Assembly (NCBI GenBank): GCA_034667745.1
Contig: JAXDQP010000052.1
Coordinates: forward strand, 1-62,161
From: Thermoplasmata archaeon
Lineage (GTDB): Archaea > Thermoplasmatota > E2 > JACPAO01 > JAHFTW01
Length of the DNA stretch: 62,161 nucleotides
Reading direction: 5' to 3'
Shown here: positions 6,345 to 60,343 of the stretch, piece by piece
Layout: every line of letters starts with the position of its first letter
Numbering within the stretch: position 1 is the stretch's first letter
Program-made: the position numbers and the translations under genes
The notes under the pieces: generated by a model
What the model was told of the DNA's origin: nothing
The model's database searches: none
What the model saw: the letters and a program-made list of their open reading frames with translations, nothing else

Positions 6345-6414
6345 AAACAGGGATTTCGGGGATTCCGGGGAACCAACGTCCGGGGGCTCCCCGAACTCCC
6401 CGGACTCCCTGTTT
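6345..6414. repeat. Palindromic 9-nt-phased element (GGGGA flavour), purL-purQ spacer
   Basis: AAACAGGGA TTTCGGGGA TTCCGGGGA ACCAACG TCCGGGGGC TCCCCGAAC TCCCCGGAC TCCCTGTTT. Terminal inverted repeat AAACAGGGA/TCCCTGTTT. Confidence 0.8.
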
Positions 6415-6436: not shown

Positions 6437-7285
6437 ATGAACAAGCGCGACATCAAGTGGGCCGTCCTGCGCATCGAGGGCACCAACTCGGAGGACGAGT
6501 CCGCCCAGTGCATGCGCGACGTCGGCGTGCAGGCCGAGATCGTCCACCTCAAGCAGTTCACCGGCGACGACGTGGCGCGCGACGAGCGCCGCCGGCTCTC
6601 GGACTACGACGGCCTGTGGATTGCCGGCGGCTTCAGCGCTGGCGACTACATCCGCGCCGGCGCCATCCTCGCCGCCCGCATGAAGAGCCGCATGGCGCCG
6701 GAGCTCAAGGAGTTCATCAACGCCGGCAAGCCCATGCTCGGCGTCTGCAACGGCTTCCAGATCATGGTCGAGCTGGGCGTCCTGCCCGCCCTCGACAAGA
6801 AGACCGTGATGGCGCCCGACCCGACCGCGGCGCTGCACCTCAACGACTCGGGCCACTACGAGTGCCGCCCCAGCCTGCTGCGCCACGTGAGCGGCGGCAC
6901 CTGCCGGTTCACCACGCGCATCCCGAAGGGCGAGGTGCGCACCGTCACCACGAGCCACGCCGAGGGCAAGTTCCTGCTCCCCACCAAGGCGGACTACAAG
7001 CGCCTCAAGGACCAGGACCAAATCGTCTTCCAGTACACGGACCCCGAGGGCAGCAAGGAGCCCGCCTATCCGTGGCTCCCGAACGGGGCGCCGCACGCCA
7101 TCGCCGGCGTCTGCAACCCCGACGGCACGGTCTTCGGCATGATGCCGCACCCGGAGCGCGTCTTCTGGCGCCGCGGCCACCCCGACTGGACCCGCACCGG
7201 CCTCGACGTCGGCCTCGGGCACGACGTGGGCGACGGGCGCGCCATCTTCGAGAGCATCGTGGAGTACCAGGCCAAGAAGCTGTAG
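6437..7285 (+). CDS. purQ: Phosphoribosylformylglycinamidine synthase subunit PurQ (glutaminase)
   Basis: 282 aa. 'GVCNGFQIMVELGVLP' carries the catalytic Cys, and 'MMPHPER' is present. Follows purL. Confidence 0.9.
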   Translation: MNKRDIKWAVLRIEGTNSEDESAQCMRDVGVQAEIVHLKQFTGDDVARDERRRLSDYDGLWIAGGFSAGDYIRAGAILAARMKSRMAPELKEFINAGKPMLGVCNGFQIMVELGVLPALDKKTVMAPDPTAALHLNDSGHYECRPSLLRHVSGGTCRFTTRIPKGEVRTVTTSHAEGKFLLPTKADYKRLKDQDQIVFQYTDPEGSKEPAYPWLPNGAPHAIAGVCNPDGTVFGMMPHPERVFWRRGHPDWTRTGLDVGLGHDVGDGRAIFESIVEYQAKKL

Positions 7286-7388
7286 TCACGCAGCGGCGGG
7301 CGACGCCGCGGCGCTGGTGCAGGCGCTGGCCTGTGCGAATCCACCGTGCCGTGGCGCTGGATGAAGCGTTGCGGGGGAATGGGATGGC

Positions 7389-9587: not shown

Positions 9588-9590
9588 GCG

Positions 9591-9650
9591 CCCCGCTTCC
9601 CCTCTCTCTTCCTCCTCCTTCCTCCTCTTCCTTCGTCTCTTTTCTTCCTG
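9591..9650 (+). terminator. C/T-rich tract after a stop codon (putative archaeal terminator)
   Basis: A 60-nt, almost pure pyrimidine run with a T4 run ('tcttttctt'), starting 4 nt after the TAG at 9585-9587. Confidence 0.55.
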
Positions 9651-9651
9651 C

Positions 9652-13211: not shown

Positions 13212-14693
13212 ATGAAGACCCTGGGGGTTCTCAGCCTGCTCCTGTTGGCCACGTTGGCCGGCTGCCTCTCCGCCGAGAATGGCGCGACGACCACCTCTAG
13301 CGCGCCCGTCCTGGCCCCCTCGGCCATGCGCTTCCCGACGCCCGCGGACACCATGGTCGAGGGCCCCGGCCACGACCACGCCGCCCCGGCGCAGCACAAG
13401 ACGCTGTGGAACTACGCCTTCACGGCGCGCGACCCCCTGATGCAGAACGCGGCCAACGCGGCCGGCCTGCACGCGATGGACCTCCAGAACGGCTGGCTGT
13501 TCGGCGCGGTCTATGGCTCGCACGGCGTCGCGGTGGACGGCGGCGTCCAGATCTGGGACGTCCACACCGACCCGCTGCACCCCAAGCCCGTCGGCCGCTG
13601 GACCATCCCCGGCAGCGTCGGCGGCGACCGCTCCATCGGCGCCACCCCCGACGGCGACTTCGTCGTCATCGGCCTCGAGCCGGTCGACTGCCTCGGCCAC
13701 GCCAACCCCCTCGGCGCCCTGACGAGCGCCTACCTCATCGACGCCCGCAACAAGGCGCTCCCGGTCGTGGCCGACGTCCTGACCCCGGGCGGCACCACCG
13801 GCGGCCCCGGCCAGAACCCGCTCCACATCTCGACCCACTCGGTCTTCGTCCACCGCATCCAGGGCAAGGACTACGCCTTCATCGCGGGCGACATCTACCG
13901 CATCGACCGCGGCGAGCAGGGCGCCAAGCTGGTCTCCGTCGGCACCATCAACTCGGGCCACGACGCCTACGTGCGCGACACGCCGTGGAACACCACCTGG
14001 GCGCTGACCGCGAACGGCGGCGGCGGCATGGCCATCTACGACGTCACCGACCCCGCCAAGCCCTTCAGCGTCGGCCAGTGGGACCTGCCCAACCGCACCG
14101 AGCTGGCCAAGGCGCAGGGCGGCGACTACTACTTCCACACCGCGGACGTCGCGTTCCTGCCCGGCCAGACCCTCGTGGTGCTGACCTCGGAGGACTTCGC
14201 GCCGCACGTGAGCCCCCTCTGGGTCCTCGACGGCAACCCGCTGCGCGACGTCAAGGCCGGCGGCGACCCGGCGCAGCTGCGCGTCCTGGGCGAGTGGCAC
14301 AACCCCTACAACCACACGGCGGCCAACATCCGCTTCAGCCTGCACAACCCGCGCTTCCACGACGGCGGCCTGCTGACCATCTCGAGCTACCACGCCGGCT
14401 TCTTCCAGCTCGACCTGCGCCACCCCTCGTTCTGGGAGAATCCCTCCCTCATCGCCGACGGCGCCTACGCCGACGGCACCGCGCCGCTCTTCGTGGACCC
14501 CGCCGAGAGCGCCGTGGAGAACCAGGTGTGCAAGCTGGGCATCGCCATCGACGCGCCCGAGCAGATGGACGTCGCGATGGGCCAGAACGGCGTGATGTAC
14601 CTGGCGGACGTGTTCATGGGCCTCTACACGTTCACGCCCACGGAGACCCACCCGGTCTTCGGCACGAACCCCGTCGCGCCCGTCCAGGGCTGA
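13212..14693 (+). CDS. Secreted lipoprotein with LVIVD-like beta-propeller repeats
   Basis: Signal peptide plus lipobox 'LLLLATLAGC'. Repeats such as 'VQIWDVHTDPLHPKP' and 'GMAIYDVTDPAKP' resemble LVIVD repeats. Confidence 0.7.
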   Translation: MKTLGVLSLLLLATLAGCLSAENGATTTSSAPVLAPSAMRFPTPADTMVEGPGHDHAAPAQHKTLWNYAFTARDPLMQNAANAAGLHAMDLQNGWLFGAVYGSHGVAVDGGVQIWDVHTDPLHPKPVGRWTIPGSVGGDRSIGATPDGDFVVIGLEPVDCLGHANPLGALTSAYLIDARNKALPVVADVLTPGGTTGGPGQNPLHISTHSVFVHRIQGKDYAFIAGDIYRIDRGEQGAKLVSVGTINSGHDAYVRDTPWNTTWALTANGGGGMAIYDVTDPAKPFSVGQWDLPNRTELAKAQGGDYYFHTADVAFLPGQTLVVLTSEDFAPHVSPLWVLDGNPLRDVKAGGDPAQLRVLGEWHNPYNHTAANIRFSLHNPRFHDGGLLTISSYHAGFFQLDLRHPSFWENPSLIADGAYADGTAPLFVDPAESAVENQVCKLGIAIDAPEQMDVAMGQNGVMYLADVFMGLYTFTPTETHPVFGTNPVAPVQG

Positions 14694-15830: not shown

Positions 15831-16871
15831 GTGAAGGCCCTCGCCGCCGTGGCGTTGCTCCTGGCGTGCGGCCTCGCCGGCTGCGGGGAAAAGGCCCAGC
15901 CCGCGCCCGCGGCGTTCGACGGCGGGGCCGCGCTCGCGTTCGTCAAGCAGGTCGCGCTCCAGGCCGACGGCTCCCCCCGCTTCCGCATCCCCGGCACGCA
16001 GGGCCAACTGGATGGCGCCGCCGCCCTCTGGAACGCCTCGGCCGTCGCCGGCTGGGAGCGCGCGTGGCAGAACTTCACGGGCCCGGACTACCTCGGCCTC
16101 GACCGCAGCGTCGTGCGCGGCTACACCCCGGGCCCCGGCGTGGACCGCCGCTACTGCACCGAGGAGGCCGAGGCCAAGGTCCCCAGCCTGCGCTTCGCCA
16201 ACCTGTTCGCGTCCCGCCCCGCCGCCGACCCGGCCGCGCCGATGCTGCTGCTGGGCGCGCACTGGGACTCGCAGATGCACAGCGACAACGACATCCAGGC
16301 CAACCGCTCCAAGCCCGACCCCGGCGCCAACGACGGCGCCTCCGGCGTCGGCGTCCTGCTGCAACTGATGCGCGCCGTGGACGCGGCCGAGCCGTTCCCG
16401 TTCGCGGTGGGCATCCTCTTCATCGACGGCGAGGACGGCTTCTTCGACTGCTACCCCGACGCCGGCAGCCTCTGGTTCGCGCAGCACCTCCCGCGCCCCG
16501 TCGCCGCCTTCGTCCTGCTCGACATGGTGGGCGACCCCGGCGCGCTCTACCCGAAGGAGCGCTACAGCGCCACCAGCGCGCCCGCCCTCCAGGCCCTCCT
16601 GTGGCGCCACGGTCAAGCCACGCCCTACGGCGCGGCGCACTTCGTGAACGGCACCGCCACCATCGAGGACGACCACCTCGCCTTCATCCACGCCGGCATC
16701 CCCGCCGTGGACATCATCGACGCGGGGCGCCCGACGACGTTCCCGCCGCAATGGGACACCGCCTTCGACACCGTGGACCGCCTCGACGCGCGGATGCTCG
16801 GCCTCGTTGGCGACACGCTGATGGCGACGCTGCGCGACCCCGCCCTCGTGCCTTTGCTGACTACCCACTGA
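15831..16871 (+). CDS. M28-family peptidase / glutaminyl-cyclase-like lipoprotein
   Basis: Lipobox 'LLACGLAGC'. Metal-ligand motifs 'GAHWDS', 'GANDGASGVGVLLQL', 'FIDGEDG', 'LLDMVG' and 'DDHLAF'. Confidence 0.75.
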   Translation: MKALAAVALLLACGLAGCGEKAQPAPAAFDGGAALAFVKQVALQADGSPRFRIPGTQGQLDGAAALWNASAVAGWERAWQNFTGPDYLGLDRSVVRGYTPGPGVDRRYCTEEAEAKVPSLRFANLFASRPAADPAAPMLLLGAHWDSQMHSDNDIQANRSKPDPGANDGASGVGVLLQLMRAVDAAEPFPFAVGILFIDGEDGFFDCYPDAGSLWFAQHLPRPVAAFVLLDMVGDPGALYPKERYSATSAPALQALLWRHGQATPYGAAHFVNGTATIEDDHLAFIHAGIPAVDIIDAGRPTTFPPQWDTAFDTVDRLDARMLGLVGDTLMATLRDPALVPLLTTH

Positions 16872-16900
16872 ACCGCGGATTGCGCGGATGACGCGGATTT
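16870..16900. repeat. 9-nt-phased element, single arm (CGCGGA flavour)
   Basis: AACCGCGGA TTGCGCGGA TGACGCGGA TTT, starting inside the stop codon of the M28 gene. 29/30 identical to the reverse complement of 45426..45455. Confidence 0.8.
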
Positions 16901-20626: not shown

Positions 20627-20630
20627 AGCC

Positions 20631-20712
20631 CACGCTCCCCCCTTCTCCCCCTCTTCCCCTGGCTCACCTCTTCCCCCTCCTCCTTTTCGTTTCTTCGCCC
20701 CTCGTTCCCCCT
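20631..20712 (+). terminator. C/T-rich tract after a stop codon
   Basis: An ~80-nt pyrimidine-rich run including 'cctccttttcgtttcttc', just after the TGA at 20624-20626. Confidence 0.55.
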
Positions 20713-27981: not shown

Positions 27982-28066
27982 GAAACCACGGACTCGACAT
28001 TTTTCACGAATCGCCGACTTGGGGCAGGCAAAAAGAGGTTCGTGCAATCCGTGCAATTCGCGGGTT
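27982..28066. repeat. Palindromic 9-nt-phased element (CACGGA/CGCGAA flavour)
   Basis: Left arm GAAACCACGGA...TTTTTCACGAATCGCC. Loop containing GGCAAAAAGA. Right arm GGTTCGTGCAATCCGTGCAATTCGCGGGTT. Begins at the first base after the PAP2 gene stop. Confidence 0.7.
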
Positions 28067-31875: not shown

Positions 31876-31920
31876 CATTTTCGCATTGCGTCGATTTCGT
31901 GAACGGGTTTCGGGCCGAAC
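31876..31920. repeat. Degenerate 9-nt-phased element
   Basis: TTTTCGCAT TGCGTCGAT TTCGTGAAC GGGTTTCGG, with the same phasing and TCG/CGA core as the other copies. Weaker match. Confidence 0.4.
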
Positions 31921-33178: not shown

Positions 33179-33236
33179 GAACCACGGTTCCACGGTTGCA
33201 CGGAAGTTCCGTTCCGTGGCCCCGCGCAACCCGTGG
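33179..33236. repeat. Palindromic phased element (CACGG flavour, 8-9 nt phase)
   Basis: GAACCACGGTTCCACGGTTGCACGGAAGTTCCGTTCCGTGGCCCCGCGCAACCCGTGG, located 9 nt after the MBL gene stop. Confidence 0.7.
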
Positions 33237-38392: not shown

Positions 38393-38450
38393 GGATTCGA
38401 AAAATCCCGGCGCAGGCGTTTCCGGTTGTCGCGGGAATCGTGCGCTTCGC
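38393..38450. repeat. Degenerate phased element with a 5-bp hairpin
   Basis: GGATTCGAAAAATCC hairpin, then TTTCCGGTT GTCGCGGGA ATCGTGCGC TTCGCC. Starts at the first base after the S2P stop. Confidence 0.4.
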
Positions 38451-40042: not shown

Positions 40043-40050
40043 GCCGACCG

Positions 40051-40088
40051 GTCCCCTCCTCCCCTTTTCCTTCCTCCTCTGTTTTTGC
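40051..40088 (+). terminator. C/T-rich tract after a stop codon
   Basis: 'gtcccctcctccccttttccttcctcctctgttttt', 9 nt after the TGA at 40040-40042. Confidence 0.55.
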
Positions 40089-41856: not shown

Positions 41857-42879
41857 GTGGCCGTGCTCGGCATCGAAGGCACCGCGCACACGCTGGGGGT
41901 GGGCATCGTGGAGGAGAAGGGCGGGCGCTGCCGCGTCCTGGCCAACGAGCGCGCGATGGCGAAGCCGGCCACGCAGCCGCCGACGGAGCCGGGCGGGCCG
42001 GCCGCCGGCATCCACCCCCGCGAGGCCGCGCACCAGCACGCCGAGGCCGCGCCGGGCCTGCTGCACCGCGCGCTGGAGAAGGCCAACCTCTCGCCGGACG
42101 AGCTGGAGGGGGTCGCGTTCAGCCAGGGCCCCGGCCTCGGCCCCTGCCTGCGCGTCGCCGCCACGATGGCCCGCGCCCTGGCCCTCCGCCACGGCAAGCC
42201 GCTGCTCGGGGTGAACCACTGCGTCGCTCACCTGGAGATTGGGCGCGGCATGACGGGCGCCACGGACCCGATGCTGCTCTACGCCTCCGGCGGCAACACG
42301 CAGGTGCTGGCCTTCGCGCGGGGCCGCTACCGCGTCTTCGGCGAGACGCTCGACATCGGCCTCGGCAACGCGCTGGACAAGTTCGCGCGCGCCCTCGGCG
42401 TCCCGTTCCCCGGCGGCCCCCAGGTCGAGGCGTGGGCGGCGCAGGCGACGGGGCCGTGGCACGCGCTGCCCTACACGGTCAAGGGCATGGACATGAGCTT
42501 CGCCGGGCTCGCGACGGCTGCCCAGCGCCTCGCGCAGGAGGGCGTGCCGCTGCCGGAGGTGGCCTTCGCGTTCCAGGAGCACGCGTTCGGCGCCCTCGTC
42601 GAGACGGCGGAGCGCGCCCTTGCGCACACCGGCCGCAGCGAGCTGGTGCTGGGCGGCGGCGTCGCCTGCAACGCCCGCCTGCAAGCCATGGCGCGCGCCA
42701 TGTGCGAAGGCCGCGGCGCCACCATGCACTGCCCGCCGCGCGAGGTGCTGGTGGACAACGGCGCGATGATTGGCTGGCTTGGCCTGCTGAAGCTGCGCGC
42801 GGGCGACGTGATGCCGGTCGAGAGGAGCCAGGTGCTTCCCTACCAACGGACGGACGAGGTCGAGGTGACCTGGCGATGA
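41857..42879 (+). CDS. kae1: tRNA N6-adenosine threonylcarbamoyltransferase Kae1
   Basis: 'VLGIEGTAHTLGVGIV', 'VNHCVAHLE' and 'GGGVACNARL'. GTG start 23 nt after a 'GCTTAACA' box. Confidence 0.9.
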   Translation: MAVLGIEGTAHTLGVGIVEEKGGRCRVLANERAMAKPATQPPTEPGGPAAGIHPREAAHQHAEAAPGLLHRALEKANLSPDELEGVAFSQGPGLGPCLRVAATMARALALRHGKPLLGVNHCVAHLEIGRGMTGATDPMLLYASGGNTQVLAFARGRYRVFGETLDIGLGNALDKFARALGVPFPGGPQVEAWAAQATGPWHALPYTVKGMDMSFAGLATAAQRLAQEGVPLPEVAFAFQEHAFGALVETAERALAHTGRSELVLGGGVACNARLQAMARAMCEGRGATMHCPPREVLVDNGAMIGWLGLLKLRAGDVMPVERSQVLPYQRTDEVEVTWR

Positions 42880-43589
42880 GCCCCGCCTCCGAGCCAGGGA
42901 TTCCGGGGGGTTTGGGGATACCCCGCCCATCCGAATCCCCGGAATCCTTGCAGTCCCTGTTTGGCCGGGGCGGGAAGGTGGGCGCCGAGGCCGAGGTTGC
43001 GCCAACGGACTGGATGGGGCGCGCCACCGTCGCCAAGCGGCGCCTGCCCAAGCCCTACCGCCACCCGGAGCTGGACGCCCGGCTGCGGAGCGAGCGCACC
43101 CGCGACGAGGCCGCGCTCCTGCTCGCCGCCCGCCGCGCCGGCATTCCCGTCCCGGTCCTCTACGACGCCGACCGCGCCGCCAGCGTCCTCGTCCTGGAGC
43201 AGGTTCCCGGCCCGACGCTGCGGGTCGCGCTGGAGTCCGATGGTGACGCCGTGGCCGCGCAACGGCTTGGTGCGTTGGGGCGCGCGGTGGGTCGCCTGCA
43301 CGACGCGGGCCTCACGCACGGCGACCTCACCACGAGCAACGTCCTGCTGCCGGAGCCCGCCGACGCCGCGCGTTTGGTCCTCATCGACTTCGGCCTCGGC
43401 GCCTTCAGCGAGGAGCCGGAGCCGCGCGGCGTGGACCTGCACCTGGTCGAGGAGGCGCTCGCCGCCACCGACGCACGGCACAAGGCCCTGTTCGCCGCGT
43501 TCCTGGACGGCTACCGCGCCGCGGCCCGTTGCGCGCCCGCCTCGCTCCAGCGGCTTGATGACATCCGGCAGCGTGGCAGGTACCACTGA
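42876..43589 (+). CDS. bud32: KEOPS kinase/ATPase Bud32
   Basis: 'GAEAEV...KRRLPKPYRHPELDARLRSERTRDEA' and 'HGDLTTSNVLL...LIDFGL'. ATG 42876 overlaps the kae1 stop (ATGA). The first ~24 codons are a repeat element, so TTG 42948 is an alternative start. Confidence 0.8.
   Translation: MSPASEPGIPGGLGIPRPSESPESLQSLFGRGGKVGAEAEVAPTDWMGRATVAKRRLPKPYRHPELDARLRSERTRDEAALLLAARRAGIPVPVLYDADRAASVLVLEQVPGPTLRVALESDGDAVAAQRLGALGRAVGRLHDAGLTHGDLTTSNVLLPEPADAARLVLIDFGLGAFSEEPEPRGVDLHLVEEALAATDARHKALFAAFLDGYRAAARCAPASLQRLDDIRQRGRYH
42895..42962. repeat. Palindromic 9-nt-phased element (GGGGA flavour) at the kae1/bud32 junction
   Basis: CAGGGATTCCGGGGGGTTTGGGGATACCCCGCCCATCCGAATCCCCGGAATCCTTGCAGTCCCTGTTT. 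It has the same ends (CAGGGATT... / ...TCCCTGTTT) as the purL-purQ copy. Confidence 0.8.
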
Positions 43590-44301: not shown

Positions 44302-45381
44302 ATGGCCCTGCAGGACCCCACCTTCATCGCTGTCCTCGTCGCGCTCGGCGTGGTCGTCCTGCTGCTCCTGCTCCTCGTCGTCGCGCAGGGCGGGCGCCGC
44401 CGCCGCGCCGCGCAGCTCGAGGGCCACGCGCAGCCGCTGCACCAGGGCCAGTCCCTGCCCAGCCCCGCGCCCGAGGGCCTGCTGGAGTTCAACGCCCAGC
44501 CCGTCGTCACGCAGGCCGTCGTGGCCCGCCCGCCGCAGCGCTTCGGCCCCGACGTGGTCGTCTACGACATCCCCTCCCTGCCCGCGAGCTACCGCGCCTG
44601 GGAGCCGACGCCCCACCGCGGCACCGTCGCCTACACCTACCCCCGCCCGGTCGAGAAGGCGGTCTACACCAACGACTACATCCGCGTCGACGCCGCCGGC
44701 ACGACCCTGAAGATGCGCACCCTCCTGGCCGGCCCCGACGGCGCCGGGCAGGCCCCGCTGCAGGGCCAGCAGGCGACCCCGGCGCGCCCCACCCTGACGC
44801 AGGACGACGTGCCGGAGCCCTACCGCTCCAAGCTCTTCCCGCCCGCCCGCAAGGCCAAGGCGGCGCCCTCCAGCGACGGCCGCGCCTTCGTGGAGCGCCT
44901 CCAGGAGCGCATCGCGCAACCCGCCGCGCCCGTGGCGGCCCCGGAGCGCGCCTACTACGACTACCCCGGCGACGTCCACCCCGTCGAGGACGTCGAGGGC
45001 ATCGGCGCCATCTACGGCGACCGCCTGCGCGCCGCCGGCGTCCACACCACCGCGCGCCTCTGCTTCGAGGACGCGCAGCAGCTCGCCGACAAGGTGGGCG
45101 TCCCGCTCAAGACCGTGCAGCAGTGGCAGGCGATGGGCGAGCTGGTCAAGGTCAAGGGCATCGGCCCGCAGTACGCCGAGGCGCTCGCCCGCGCCGGCAT
45201 CGACGGCATCGCCGCCCTCAAGCGCCGCGCCGCCTCCACCGTGGCCGACCAGGTGAACGCCTACCTCGACTCCCTGGAGACGACGGTGGTCGGCACCAAG
45301 ATCACCGAGGCCCGCGTCGAGGGCTGGAAGAAGGCCGCCGAGGGCATGAAGCGCGTCCGCCTCAAGGAACCCGCGCAGTAA
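44302..45381 (+). CDS. Membrane-anchored protein with tandem DUF4332-like helix-hairpin-helix modules
   Basis: N-terminal TM 'FIAVLVALGVVVLLLLLLVV'. C-terminal 'VEGIGAIYGDRLRAAGV...QQWQAMGELVKVKGIGPQYAEALARAGI'. Confidence 0.65.
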   Translation: MALQDPTFIAVLVALGVVVLLLLLLVVAQGGRRRRAAQLEGHAQPLHQGQSLPSPAPEGLLEFNAQPVVTQAVVARPPQRFGPDVVVYDIPSLPASYRAWEPTPHRGTVAYTYPRPVEKAVYTNDYIRVDAAGTTLKMRTLLAGPDGAGQAPLQGQQATPARPTLTQDDVPEPYRSKLFPPARKAKAAPSSDGRAFVERLQERIAQPAAPVAAPERAYYDYPGDVHPVEDVEGIGAIYGDRLRAAGVHTTARLCFEDAQQLADKVGVPLKTVQQWQAMGELVKVKGIGPQYAEALARAGIDGIAALKRRAASTVADQVNAYLDSLETTVVGTKITEARVEGWKKAAEGMKRVRLKEPAQ

Positions 45382-45390
45382 GCTACCACG

Positions 45391-45455
45391 AAACGCGGAT
45401 GGCGCTGATTTGCCGGATGAGCAAAAAATCCGCGGCATCCGCGCAATCCGCGGTT
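45391..45455. repeat. Palindromic 9-nt-phased element (CGCGGA flavour)
   Basis: Left arm AAACGCGGATGGCGCTGATTTGCCGGAT. Loop GAGCAAAAA. Right arm ATCCGCGGCATCCGCGCAATCCGCGGTT. I count 21/28 arm complementarity by hand. Confidence 0.8.
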
Positions 45456-45466
45456 GGTCCGGCAAT

Positions 45467-45488
45467 ACAACTCCCAGCAAGTTGTTTT
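45467..45488 (+). terminator. Hairpin plus T4 (intrinsic-like terminator)
   Basis: ACAACT-cccagca-AGTTGT followed by TTTT. Lies between the repeat element and the promoter box of the PAS-MenA gene. Confidence 0.5.
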
Positions 45489-45535
45489 CGTCGGACGCCC
45501 TTATCTCCGAGGACGCGTCCAGAAGGAGTGAGAGC

Positions 45536-46879: not shown

Positions 46880-46902
46880 GCCGCGCCTGCGCCACGCGGC
46901 AG

Positions 46903-46938
46903 TCCTTTTCCCTCTCCCTCCAAGCCTCTTTTCTCGCC
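46903..46938 (+). terminator. C/T-rich tract after a stop codon
   Basis: 'tccttttccctctccctccaagcctcttttctcgcc', after the TGA at 46877-46879. Confidence 0.5.
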
Positions 46939-46954
46939 CGTGCGATGCCAGCCC

Positions 46955-52613: not shown

Positions 52614-52620
52614 CCTCGGC

Positions 52621-52663
52621 GCAGGCCCGGCCTGCATCCCTCTTCCTTCCCTCTTTCTTTTCG
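52621..52663 (+). terminator. GC hairpin plus C/T tract after rps15
   Basis: GCAGGC-ccg-GCCTGC hairpin followed by 'atccctcttccttccctctttcttttcgc'. Confidence 0.6.
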
Positions 52664-52825
52664 CTGGCTCCGTGTGGCCTAGGATTTCGGCGGTTTTCAC
52701 GACCCCGCGCCTTTGCCTGTGCGCTGCGTGGCAATCTCCTGAAGGTCGCCGCAATCCAGGCCTCCCTTGCGGACAAGGCCCCTCGCAAGCCTCATCCCGC
52801 CGCACCCCTCGGGAACCGCGTGGCG

Positions 52826-57210: not shown

Positions 57211-57296
57211 GAAGGACCTCAACCTCCCATGCCTTCCCGCCGGGATGGCCGTTCCGGACGATTTGTCCCGGACAAGGCTCGAACAGTCACGGGACA

Positions 57297-57315
57297 CGGG
57301 AAAGAGAGGGAAAGG
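57297..57315 (-). terminator. C/T-rich tract (minus strand) after the small peptide gene
   Basis: The minus strand reads 'cctttccctctctttcccg', 14 nt after the stop at 57329-57331. Confidence 0.45.
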
Positions 57316-57632: not shown

Positions 57633-58868
57633 CTAGTTGGCGTCGTACTCGCCCTTGCGGGCGGCGTCGATCCACTTCTGCGCCACGGCAGGGGTGACCT
57701 CTTGGCCCTGGATGCGGGTCTTGCGGCCGCGCTCGGCGTCCTTGACCTTGCGGCTGACCCCCTCGGCGGTCTCGGCGGCGAGCTGCTTGGTGCTCAGGAT
57801 GCCGGCGGCGACCAGGACCTCGGCGCTCTGCGGGCCGACGCCCTTCAGGCGCAGCAGCTCCGCCATCGCCTGCCACTGCCGCACGAGCTCGGGGGTGGCG
57901 CCGATGAGGTTGCCGACGTGGTTGGCGTCGACCGCCACCAGCTGCGGGATGGTGATGATGCCGTTGGCGTTGAGGCGGCTCGCGTACGCGGGGCCGATGC
58001 CCTCGATGGCGATGACGTGGTGCCTCTCCTCGCCGGGCGCGAACTCGACCTTCTTGGGCTTGGCGGACGCCACGAGGTTGACGTTGGTGTCCTCCAGCTC
58101 GCGCTGCTTGACCAGCAGCAGGGTCTCGCGCTTCTTGAGGGCGGCCAACTCCTGGTCCAGGGTCTGGCGGTGGGCGACGGCCTCCATGTCGCGGCGCTCG
58201 ACGGCCTCGAGGGTCTCGTCGACGCGGTGGTTGATCTTGACCTGGCTCTTCTCCAGCAGGACGACCTTCTCCTGCAGTTCCTTCAGCAGCGGCGAGTTCA
58301 CCTTGTCGGCGGTGCGGAGGGCCTGCAGGTCCTTCGCCATCGCGCCGACGTCGGCCACCAGCTTCTCGATGGTGGTGCGGTAGGCCGGCTCGCGGCTGAG
58401 GGCCTCGGCGCGGGCCAGCGCGTCGCTGGCGGCCTTGAGGGCCTGGTTCGAGGCGCGCATGGCGCCGTCGTACATCTGGTCGCGCTGGTTGAACTCGCGC
58501 TTCATCGCCTCGCGCAGGTCGGCCAGCTCCTGGCGCAGCGCCTCGCGGAACTCGCGGCTGGCCTGCTCCTCGCCGCGGCGCATCTCGGTCATGCGGTCCT
58601 GCTCGCTGGCGAACAGGTCGCGCACCTGGCGCTCGACGTCGAAGATGACGCCGATGCGCAGCAGGAACAGGATGAGGACGACCGTCAGCACCAGCACCGT
58701 CAGGGTGAGGGCGCGGCTCAGGGCGTACACGTCGAAGAGGCCGAGGCCCGGCACGTTGCCCAGGCCCAGGATGAGCGCGGCCACCACGCCGAACCCAAGA
58801 ATCGCAGCCAGCGCCCGGAAGAACCGGACGTTGCGCTGGGCAAAGCCCCCGGCATCGTTGTCGTCCAT
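57633..58868 (-). CDS. Membrane-anchored coiled-coil protein with C-terminal DUF4332-like HhH modules
   Basis: 2 TM helices and a long coiled coil, then 'IEGIGPAYASRLNANGI...RQWQAMAELLRLKGVGPQSAEVLVAAGI'. Paralogous to the C-terminus of 44302..45381. Confidence 0.65.
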   Translation of the reverse strand: MDDNDAGGFAQRNVRFFRALAAILGFGVVAALILGLGNVPGLGLFDVYALSRALTLTVLVLTVVLILFLLRIGVIFDVERQVRDLFASEQDRMTEMRRGEEQASREFREALRQELADLREAMKREFNQRDQMYDGAMRASNQALKAASDALARAEALSREPAYRTTIEKLVADVGAMAKDLQALRTADKVNSPLLKELQEKVVLLEKSQVKINHRVDETLEAVERRDMEAVAHRQTLDQELAALKKRETLLLVKQRELEDTNVNLVASAKPKKVEFAPGEERHHVIAIEGIGPAYASRLNANGIITIPQLVAVDANHVGNLIGATPELVRQWQAMAELLRLKGVGPQSAEVLVAAGILSTKQLAAETAEGVSRKVKDAERGRKTRIQGQEVTPAVAQKWIDAARKGEYDAN

Positions 58869-60260: not shown

Positions 60261-60343
60261 GGCGAACGGAGCCCACGGAACGCACGGAAGCCAACGACAT
60301 CAGGGACCGGCAGGTTCCGTGGAATCCGGGGGTTCCGTCGTCC
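60261..60343. repeat. Palindromic 9-nt-phased element (ACGGA flavour) filling the rpoL-truD spacer
   Basis: Five phased units (..ACGGA ..ACGGA ..ACGGA ..AACGA ..AGGGA), then three inverted units (TTCCGTGGA ATCCGGGGG TTCCGTCGT). Confidence 0.8.

Follow-up and report, generated by a model that had tools for sequence, protein, structure and literature searches.

Introduction

Among the closest described systems are repetitive extragenic palindromic (REP) elements, bacterial interspersed mosaic elements (BIMEs) and REP doublets forming hairpins (REPINs), together with the REP-associated tyrosine transposases (RAYTs). Their palindromes are high-copy and extragenic, lie mostly downstream of genes and occur both as inverted doublets and as remnant-like singlets, with some intragenic copies (PMC3733652, PMC3116915). 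In a REPtron, the repeats flank a single small nuclease-type gene, and copies without a gene are far more numerous (PMC3733652, PMC3116915). For the CGTC-type REP families, which include RPE-4 and RPE-6 of the Rickettsia palindromic elements (RPEs), no associated nuclease has been reported (PMC3733652). Here we analyze a family of short elements in a 62,161-nt contig of a Thermoplasmata archaeon (JAXDQP010000052.1; the whole stretch is referred to as the window), in which arms of phased 9-nt units with a C-N-N-G-G-A core typically face each other. An earlier reading of the window alone, hereafter the original prediction, had listed several roles for them, and of these MITE-like mobile DNA (MITE, miniature inverted-repeat transposable element) and REP/BIME-like repeats are the ones that our results favor. 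The window elements are best explained as gene-less miniature copies, comparable to MITEs or REPINs, of a widespread and apparently undescribed selfish element that carries a GxxExxY nuclease gene, a reading to which we assign a probability of about 0.6. Genomes and loci compared with the window are designated by L or P and a number.

Results

Phased arrays in the window

The window has a GC content of 72%, and GC at third codon positions (GC3) reaches ~97%; its genes were therefore called by GC3, which leaves 9% of the window as a non-coding remainder. Pfam domains identify archaeal housekeeping genes, namely purS/L/Q, kae1, bud32, rpoL, truD, and the S15 ribosomal protein gene, and a JGI soil metagenome contig with an identical PurQ shows 100% identity to the window. 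The phased C-N-N-G-G-A arrays are real and far above chance: allowing at most one mismatch, (CNNGGA N3)x3 matches the window 17 times against 1.1 expected, a count that none of 100 shuffles reached, and six of the matches are exact. All five arrays of at least three exact units fall in the non-coding fraction. A position weight matrix (PWM) of the unit, trained on relatives only and with 112,394 coding positions as background, gives 20-30 bits at 6345, 16870, 27982, 42895, 45391, and 60261, compared with a coding maximum of 15.4 bits. The original prediction had named an equal frequency of phased units in coding DNA as an outcome that would speak against it, and this is not what we find. The C, the first G and the final A of the C..GGA units never vary, and the phasing of 9 bp is strict, with variable linkers.

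Sequences and coordinates at 6345-6414 and the other listed loci are as first described. The element at 6345-6414 occupies the purL-purQ spacer, with AAACAGGGA TTTCGGGGA TTCCGGGGA as its left arm and four inverted units as its right arm. Both arms have CAGGGA as their outer unit and CGGGGA as their inner units; the 30-nt arms are 83% complementary, score 30.0 and 25.7 bits, and fold at -45.9 kcal/mol (z -3.7 against shuffles). The CGCGGA element at 45391-45455 starts 9 nt 3' of the stop of a DUF4332/helix-hairpin-helix gene and combines a perfect right arm with a decaying left one (26.1 and 11.9 bits; z -2.6). A two-arm element of CACGG flavor (33179-33236) lies 8 nt 3' of the stop of a beta-lactamase-fold gene; it is clear by eye, but has a period of 8-9 nt (z -2.0). 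The folds of these three are significant and those of the others modest. Directly 3' of the PAP2 gene stop, the element at 27982-28066 has a good right arm, which reverse-complemented reads AACCCGCGAA TTGCACGGA TTGCACGAA (30.3 bits), a decayed left arm (9.0 bits), and no significant fold (z +0.1).

The CACGGA/CCCGGA element at 60261-60343 (20.0 and 22.6 bits) fills the spacer between the minus-strand genes rpoL and truD, and the CAGGGA/CGGGGA element at 42895-42962 (right arm 28.2 bits) lies in frame within the first ~30 codons of bud32, whose ATG overlaps the kae1 TGA. The remaining clear locus, 16870-16900 on the plus strand, is a solo arm of three perfect units, GAAC CGCGGA TTG CGCGGA TGA CGCGGA TTT (26.2 bits). 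It overlaps the TGA stop of an M28 peptidase gene in a convergent spacer and has no inverted partner, hence no palindrome. Over the 27 positions compared with the right arm of the unrelated 45391 locus it is identical at 26, including 8 of 9 linker bases. The seven clear loci of the original prediction therefore hold up as members of the family, but not as seven palindromes: 16870 is a single arm, and 27982 and 45391 each pair one good arm with a decayed one. Their proposed closeness to stop codons is borne out, as window copies start 0-9 nt 3' of a stop and the bud32 copy starts 15 nt 3' of that of kae1. Left termini read AAAC, GAAC, or GAAAC, right termini read GTT(T) in four of six two-arm copies, and the loops measure 3-28 nt.

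A GxxExxY nuclease gene between inverted arrays

Arrays of this kind flank a nuclease gene in many unrelated bacteria and phages. In Bacteroides finegoldii (NZ_OY725952.1), element halves ~410 nt apart enclose the gene of a 124-aa "GxxExxY protein" (TIGR04256, 2e-45; PF13366 PDDEXK_3, 2e-43). The layout is TTTTCAC CACAGAGGA CACAGAGGT CACAGAG, followed by the gene and then by TCCTCCGTG TCCTCTGCG TCCTCTGTGG TGAAC, and the full element starts 1 nt 3' of the radA stop. Inverted phased arrays flank the GxxExxY gene in 13 of the 15 distinct loci that we examined, a count in which the Treponema, Sphingomonas, and Gemmatirosa loci are to be read with reserve. In a metagenome locus (L112), inverted arrays of CACAAAG-type units surround the gene in the spacer just upstream of purQ, the array starting at the TAG stop of the upstream gene. 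Inverted CACAGAG arrays do so in Bernardetia, between the genes for adenine deaminase and mannose-1-phosphate guanylyltransferase. CACGGAT arrays are found in the prfA-prmC spacer of P0090, 4 nt 3' of the prfA stop and with an 11-nt period, and in an aminotransferase-alcohol dehydrogenase spacer (P0014).

All eight viral loci (L303-L310, of which L305 and L306 look alike) carry inverted arrays in phage contigs, with units of 12-13 nt in L305-L307 and mostly of 9 nt elsewhere. Weaker cases are Treponema, where an 11-nt inverted repeat with one CACGGAT unit per side lies upstream of a Fic-family gene, and Sphingomonas, where the fabD-fabG spacer has an array on one side only. On an unannotated plasmid region of Gemmatirosa the gene is frameshifted, for which reason it was left out of the protein alignment, and a two-arm element lies just downstream. 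The Prevotella locus, between hypothetical genes, has ACAAAT arrays in direct rather than inverted order.

Units of the C-N-N-R-G-A type flank the GxxExxY genes of L297, L299, L303, L308, L309, L310, L311, and L317. The window arms share this design: about three phased units, a C-N-N-R-G-A core and a convergent arrangement with the GGA-type arm first. Full and miniature forms occupy the same kind of place, just 3' of stops and at operon junctions, sometimes in frame. No PF13366/TIGR04256 open reading frame (ORF) lies between the window arms; with loops of 3-28 nt and no homologue, the window copies can only be miniature derivatives. The proteins of L309, P0090, and P0014 (~70% identity) share the CACGGAT core, and this agreement among close relatives suggests that each GxxExxY protein may be matched to its own array. 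Other unit lengths also flank GxxExxY genes (L305-L307, L311, L317), either 11 nt (CACGGATGAAA) or 12-13 nt (TTACTTAAAATT), and arrays with different cores (CACGGA, CACAGAG, CGCAGAG) often stand head to tail, each with its own TTAAC start (for example in L167, L172, and L221).

The GxxExxY family is large: one search returned 3,693 relatives at E <= 1e-10, with sources including Planctomycetota, Verrucomicrobiota, and Caldithrix. A survey of PD-(D/E)XK proteins lists the family as "unknown", with mixed bacterial and archaeal clades plus viruses (PMC3424549). The PDB holds no relative recognizable by sequence. Many members are annotated with 137-138 aa rather than ~122 aa; in L309 (1477-1893) the extra residues come from an ORF that runs into the downstream array, which suggests a recurrent annotation artefact in the longer proteins. 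In the searchable literature, neither exact-sequence nor keyword searches turned up an account of the arrays or of an association with GxxExxY genes, and both are apparently undescribed.

Arrays in phages and other bacteria

A 19-mer, AACCNCGGATTGCNCGGAT, that matches the 16870 arm and the right arm of 45391 is present in 10 IMG/VR phage contigs of 48-68% GC, with a third phased unit in 9 of them. For CACGGA-N3 repeated three times, more than 120 phage loci are among the matches listed. Some coding microsatellites aside, the phage arrays are stereotyped: TT-N-A-C, CACGGA-nnA three times, and a purine-rich tail. The contigs that bear them are real tailed phages with portal and terminase genes; a BLAST search of the array against a collection of cultured phage genomes returned essentially nothing. 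Between convergent phage arrays 0.7-3.5 kb apart, the three gaps of ~1.0-1.2 kb that we inspected held only small ORFs and no single ORF of transposase size.

Relative to genes, the phage arrays point either way; they often adjoin ATGA start/stop overlaps, and some lie in frame within long ORFs. Crude ORF calling placed 58 on the same strand and 48 on the opposite strand, and is too noisy for a test of orientation or frame. Solo or two-arm arrays stand directly beside ATGA overlaps in L229 (3393, 5744, 8690), L169 (3214-3283), and L218 (2063, 3126). Arrays in frame, among them one in a 1570-aa ORF and one at the N-terminal end of what is likely a terminase, give rise to peptide stretches such as FNHGGHGEHGG.

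Solo arrays are common in phages (178, against 26 convergent and 4 divergent pairs). Such abundance, the free orientation relative to genes and the near-invariant C..GGA with strict 9-bp phasing and variable linkers would fit arrays of double-stranded DNA sites to which an abundant protein of the host, such as one of the ribbon-helix-helix or winged-helix type, binds cooperatively every 9 bp for nucleoid organization, as a roadblock or in regulation, the palindromy being incidental. We consider this quite unlikely. The flavor dinucleotide varies from locus to locus, yet it is mirrored position by position between the arms, a mirroring that independent sites do not need. The 40 window proteins scanned, which are housekeeping proteins or lack a relevant domain, include no candidate, and arrays that flank a nuclease gene in 13 of 15 loci are better read as the ends of elements than as operators of the host.

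The phage terminus has the consensus TTNAC-C, and many left ends resemble RYYYAAC, as in ATTTAAC. Together with the right end GTTAGGT at 27982, the placement directly 3' of stops, the imperfect palindromes and the variable sequence, this recalls the attC sites of integron-type tyrosine recombinases. That reading is largely refuted and has next to no probability left. Most archaeal ends misfit the core sites RYYYAAC and GTTRRRY (GCCAAAC...GTTTCGT at 6345, for example), the right end of 27982 being the sole fit, tandem 9-nt units and solo arms are alien to attC, and the neighbors are housekeeping operon genes rather than cassettes, with no integrase gene in the window.

Among plasmid records, BLAST found arrays in Gemmatirosa kalamazoonensis (73-74% GC), B. 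finegoldii, and B. ovatus. Gemmatirosa carries nested GAAC...GTTC palindromes (L295) and has copies in divergent spacers as well, and in Bacteroides a perfect two-arm copy lies in the gmd-fcl spacer. We take the GC content of B. finegoldii to be ~42%. The AAC terminus and the core are kept in organisms of 34-74% GC. Judged by its sequence, the family is not archaeon-specific and extends to bacteria and phages.

Turnover of the archaeal copies

The archaeal copies turn over: elements have been gained and lost, some are nested and some are solo arms, unrelated loci have near-identical arms, and the sequence changes fast without compensation. A scan of GTDB genomes with Kae1 shows that the window belongs to a Thermoplasmatota metagenome-assembled genome. 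The four closest genomes by Kae1 (L009, L007, L002, and L003; 75-93% identity) all carry arrays, and none were found in relatives at 65-69% Kae1 identity, in an unrelated Thermoplasmata genome of 74% GC or in ~70 other archaeal loci. Same-flavor arrays number 14 in the 119 kb of clade sequence, as against 0 in other archaea (1.1 Mb) and 2 in metagenome contigs (0.69 Mb).

This distribution bears on whether the arrays could have arisen locus by locus, without a shared origin, as by-products of slippage during replication and of hairpin formation in a genome so rich in GC. Unit number and period do vary (8-10 nt), and one genome, L164, shows the same G-to-A change in two adjacent right-arm units, which points to homogenization between units. 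Even so, local slippage is very improbable as the whole explanation: L021 (74% GC) and the close relatives L004-L006 and L008 (64-67% GC) have no such arrays, unrelated loci agree down to their linkers, and the AAC terminus and core are conserved across the 34-74% GC range.

At kae1/bud32, the element is present in the window, L007, and L002, all with the CAGGGA/CGGGGA order; in L009 and L003 the two genes meet at a GTGA or ATGA overlap with nothing inserted, and the ~26 codons are lacking. In the three genomes that carry the element, no stop interrupts the bud32 frame from the ATGA overlap to the far side of the element. Between the overlap and the conserved GAEA motif, L002 lacks any start codon and L007 has a single ATG, which lies in the loop of the element. 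The element thus amounts to an insertion of ~26 codons in frame, and this comparison indicates that the bud32 copy, correctly placed inside the ORF by the original prediction, is truly translated. The gene layout itself also varies: kae1 and bud32 are separate with an ATGA/GTGA overlap in the window (42876-42882), L002, L003, L007, and L009, and form one fused ORF in the more distant L004, L008, and L010.

Other orthologous sites behave similarly. At the beta-lactamase-fold gene, the window and L009 share the CACGGA flavor and differ in unit number and in distance from the stop, the L009 element being longer and ~100 nt 3' of it; L005 has none. The DUF4332 gene has a 2-unit CGCGGA element in L007 and none in L009 and L002. 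Only some genomes have an element 3' of the DUF4332 gene, S15 and the w40459 ortholog, and in one case it is a single arm. In the purL-purQ spacer, L082 has a CACGAA-flavor element, L084 and L085 have none, and L083 has a nested three-flavor palindrome whose outer right arm is the same as that of the window. Solo arms with perfect units are found both at 16870 and at position 2634 of L002. Near S15, the final 12-16 nt of that ribosomal protein gene (GCTGCTGGTCGACTAA) recur ~60-90 nt downstream in L009 (17348-17470) and L004 (10957-11060); the duplication, which is no phased-array element, looks like the scar of an insertion into the 3' end of the gene.

Pairing between the arms

The original prediction held that the two arms of a locus share their flavor and took this as a sign of a selected hairpin. 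The first part stands. A unit-by-unit alignment of seven elements shows in-register pairing of the arms at 84.7% of positions, a level that none of 500 shuffles matched and that slid registers nowhere approach; 17 of 27 pairs are changed on both sides. Core positions are Watson-Crick paired at 92%, as against 57% for linkers. The second part is not supported. Mismatches between arms comprise 8 G.U and 7 A.C, with no excess of G.U, and the rpoL-truD orthologs, in which the compensatory changes that the original prediction had proposed to look for could be sought, contain none.

The rpoL-truD element is common to the window, L163, and L164, the last of which has an identical RpoL and 97.5% DNA identity. 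Between the window and L164, 7 substitutions fall in the ~60 nt of the arms and none in the 25-nt loop, compared with 25 in 1047 nt overall (Poisson P = 7e-4). While the arms diverge, the loop, CTGCCGGTCCCTGATGTCGTTGGC (window 60287-60312), stays the same in L164 and differs by one change in L163, and something in it seems to be constrained. Rfam 15 covariance models matched the window only at tRNA-Thr and at none of the elements; they had no match in the phage loci and gave only sub-threshold miRNA-hairpin noise in the clade and Bacteroides loci.

Host-functional RNA hairpins in 3' untranslated or intercistronic regions, acting like domesticated REPs as mRNA stabilizers, processing sites or cistron uncouplers and selected for pairing, would account for the strong predicted hairpins at 6345, 45391, and 33179 and for the in-register covariation of the arms. 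They would also fit the placement of the clear archaeal copies, all of which lie 3' of a stop and closer to it than random spacer placement would give (a joint probability of ~5e-4 by our estimate), with none of ~20 clade copies in a divergent spacer by our tally. We nevertheless regard this explanation as unlikely. Arm substitutions between near-identical genomes are accelerated and uncompensated, G.U mismatches equal A.C, arms with perfect units stand alone, and one copy lies within coding sequence. Presence and position vary at orthologous sites, phage arrays take either gene orientation and Gemmatirosa arrays enter divergent spacers, and it is sequence, beyond structure, that is common to different domains of life. 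Because of the uncompensated arm change, the lack of a G.U excess and the linker-level identity of 16870 and 45391, we favor a dispersed, turning-over DNA repeat over a conserved RNA structure.

Decayed copies and neighboring sequences

Of the degenerate copies in the original prediction, that at 31876-31920 in a divergent spacer, TTTCGCA TTGCGTCGA TTTCGTGAA, is a plausible decayed relic of an element (12.0 bits on the minus strand, per-position p ~9e-6; no hairpin, z +1.9). In the same PWM scan the loci at 38393 and 52678 are weak (per-position p ~1e-3), and nothing at 7333 supports its inclusion. A further relic may be the weak array-like GTCACGGGACACGGGAAAGAGAGGGA at 57285-57311 (10.2 bits), in a spacer between two minus-strand genes.

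Long C/T-rich tracts stand 3' of genes at 9588-9651, 20627-20710, 40043-40088, 46880-46939, and 52640-52670, and probably serve this very GC-rich genome as archaeal terminators of the oligo-T type. As proposed, the tracts are independent of the elements, but they need not come after them; at 52614 the tract precedes. A short hairpin, CAACTCC-N-GCAAGTTG followed by TTTT, at 45465-45500 upstream of a PAS-UbiA gene, is kept in the window, L009 (~13590-13625), and L002 (~6725-6760) with or without the repeat element, and may be a regulatory element or terminator. The window also encodes two DUF4332/helix-hairpin-helix paralogues (44302-45381 and 57633-58868), one of them immediately upstream of the element at 45391; we established no connection between them and the repeats.

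Discussion

A proposed selfish element and its miniature copies

In the model that we favor, a full element would begin, after an outer ...AAC terminus, with an array of some three short units set in phase (unit length 9 nt in our elements, core either C-R-C-R-G-A or C-N-N-G-G-A), carry in its middle a gene for a ~122-aa PD-(D/E)XK nuclease of the GxxExxY family (PF13366/TIGR04256), and close with the same array inverted, ending GTT.... The nuclease would recognize the phased units as DNA-binding sites and would cut at or near the termini, or in hairpin or cruciform forms, thereby promoting copying. Miniature copies could be mobilized in trans or could be remnants of internal deletion, and slippage between units together with correction within the palindrome may keep the arms alike. 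The archaeon would encode, or once have encoded, a cognate nuclease. The hairpin in 3' or intercistronic mRNA would then be a side effect, which may incidentally stabilize upstream transcripts.

Several observations weigh against this model. No flanking direct repeat that could represent a target-site duplication was found in the window, L230, L169, L294, or L297. A tblastn search with 14 GxxExxY queries found no homologue in the 62-kb window, in ~57 kb of clade loci or in the array-bearing phage loci, and the partner in this archaeon is therefore assumed; likewise, archaeal flavors such as CGGGGA flank no nuclease gene among those examined. The nuclease activity and the binding of units are putative, and no transposition event has been observed. 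The flavor positions pair at 38 of 42 (~90%), compared with 57% for linkers, which neutral decay of an inverted duplication does not predict and which needs homogenization or some selection for core pairing. The lack of clear clade copies in divergent promoter spacers is what a 3'-end function also predicts. Finally, old copies have been kept in place across ~76% protein identity (kae1/bud32) or with a conserved loop (rpoL-truD).

A more far-reaching proposal, which we put forward tentatively and at somewhat less than even odds, is that the phased 9-nt units are the recognition sites of GxxExxY proteins as a previously uncharacterized class of PD-(D/E)XK mobility nucleases, of transposase or homing type. 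They would form a REPtron-like system of archaea, Bacteroidota, bacteria of the Planctomycetota-Verrucomicrobiota-Chlamydiota (PVC) group, Gemmatimonadota, Spirochaetota, and phages that inserts precisely at stops and at overlaps of start and stop codons, can be translated through in frame and scatters hundreds of hairpins without the gene over each genome. If so, a very large family annotated only as "GxxExxY protein" would gain a function and a DNA partner, a nuclease class besides the HUH RAYTs would join the short list of REP-like repeat systems, and such a system would be documented in archaea. The proposal would also explain puzzling hairpins, gene-junction insertions and short N- or C-terminal extensions in the annotation of metagenome-assembled genomes and phages. 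The cultured hosts Gemmatirosa kalamazoonensis KBS708 and B. finegoldii make it directly testable.

Comparison with known systems

The system works like a REPtron or a MITE system, but by their defining tests its elements are not REPs, classical MITEs, attC sites or CsrA sites. With the sites of CsrA/RsmA they share repeated GGA, the unit CACGGAUG resembling the CsrA/RsmA consensus CANGGANG. Unlike in such sites, the GGA triplets of the hairpin copies are base-paired in the predicted stems and not in loops, on which account the link to CsrA raised in the original prediction is rejected; some flavors, such as CACGAA and CGCAGA, have no GGA at all. CsrA is, to our knowledge, not known to occur in archaea; we made no search aimed at it.

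Tolerance of in-frame copies, seen here in bud32 and phage ORFs, is a feature of the RPEs as well. These are unrelated in sequence and larger (~100-150 bp), and have no phased units. Foldback (FB) elements of Drosophila and other eukaryotes have inverted arms of tandem short sub-repeats on a kilobase scale. Our elements are likewise inverted arms of tandem short sub-repeats with little or nothing between them, but the FB elements are eukaryotic, with kilobase-scale arms, and have no sequence or enzyme relationship to those described here.

Like REPs, BIMEs, and REPINs, the elements are high-copy extragenic palindromes, located mainly downstream of genes, with inverted hairpin doublets, remnant-like singlets, occasional copies in genes and one flanked nuclease-type gene that copies without it greatly exceed in number. 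They differ in that the arm consists of direct 9-nt units, whereas a REP is a self-complementary unit of 20-40 nt, and in that no GTAG or CGTC tag is consistent: CGTC/GACGAC stands beside some copies only (6345, L002, L003, 60261). CGTC-tagged REPs were considered, since CGTCG or GACGAC flanks some copies, and were ruled out by their stems of 8-9 bp and lack of phased units (PMC3733652). The flanked gene encodes a PD-(D/E)XK (GxxExxY) nuclease and not the Y1 HUH transposase of REPtrons, of which no gene (RAYT) is among the 40 window proteins scanned. The family moreover spans archaea, several bacterial phyla and phages. In comparison with MITEs, there is no target-site duplication, the partner belongs to no known transposase family, the ends are made of phased sub-repeats and the copies are diverged rather than near-identical. 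Nevertheless, the elements resemble MITEs in being short (58-85 nt), gene-less, multi-copy and intergenic, with inverted ends, and in their relation to a longer, gene-carrying form that has the same ends.

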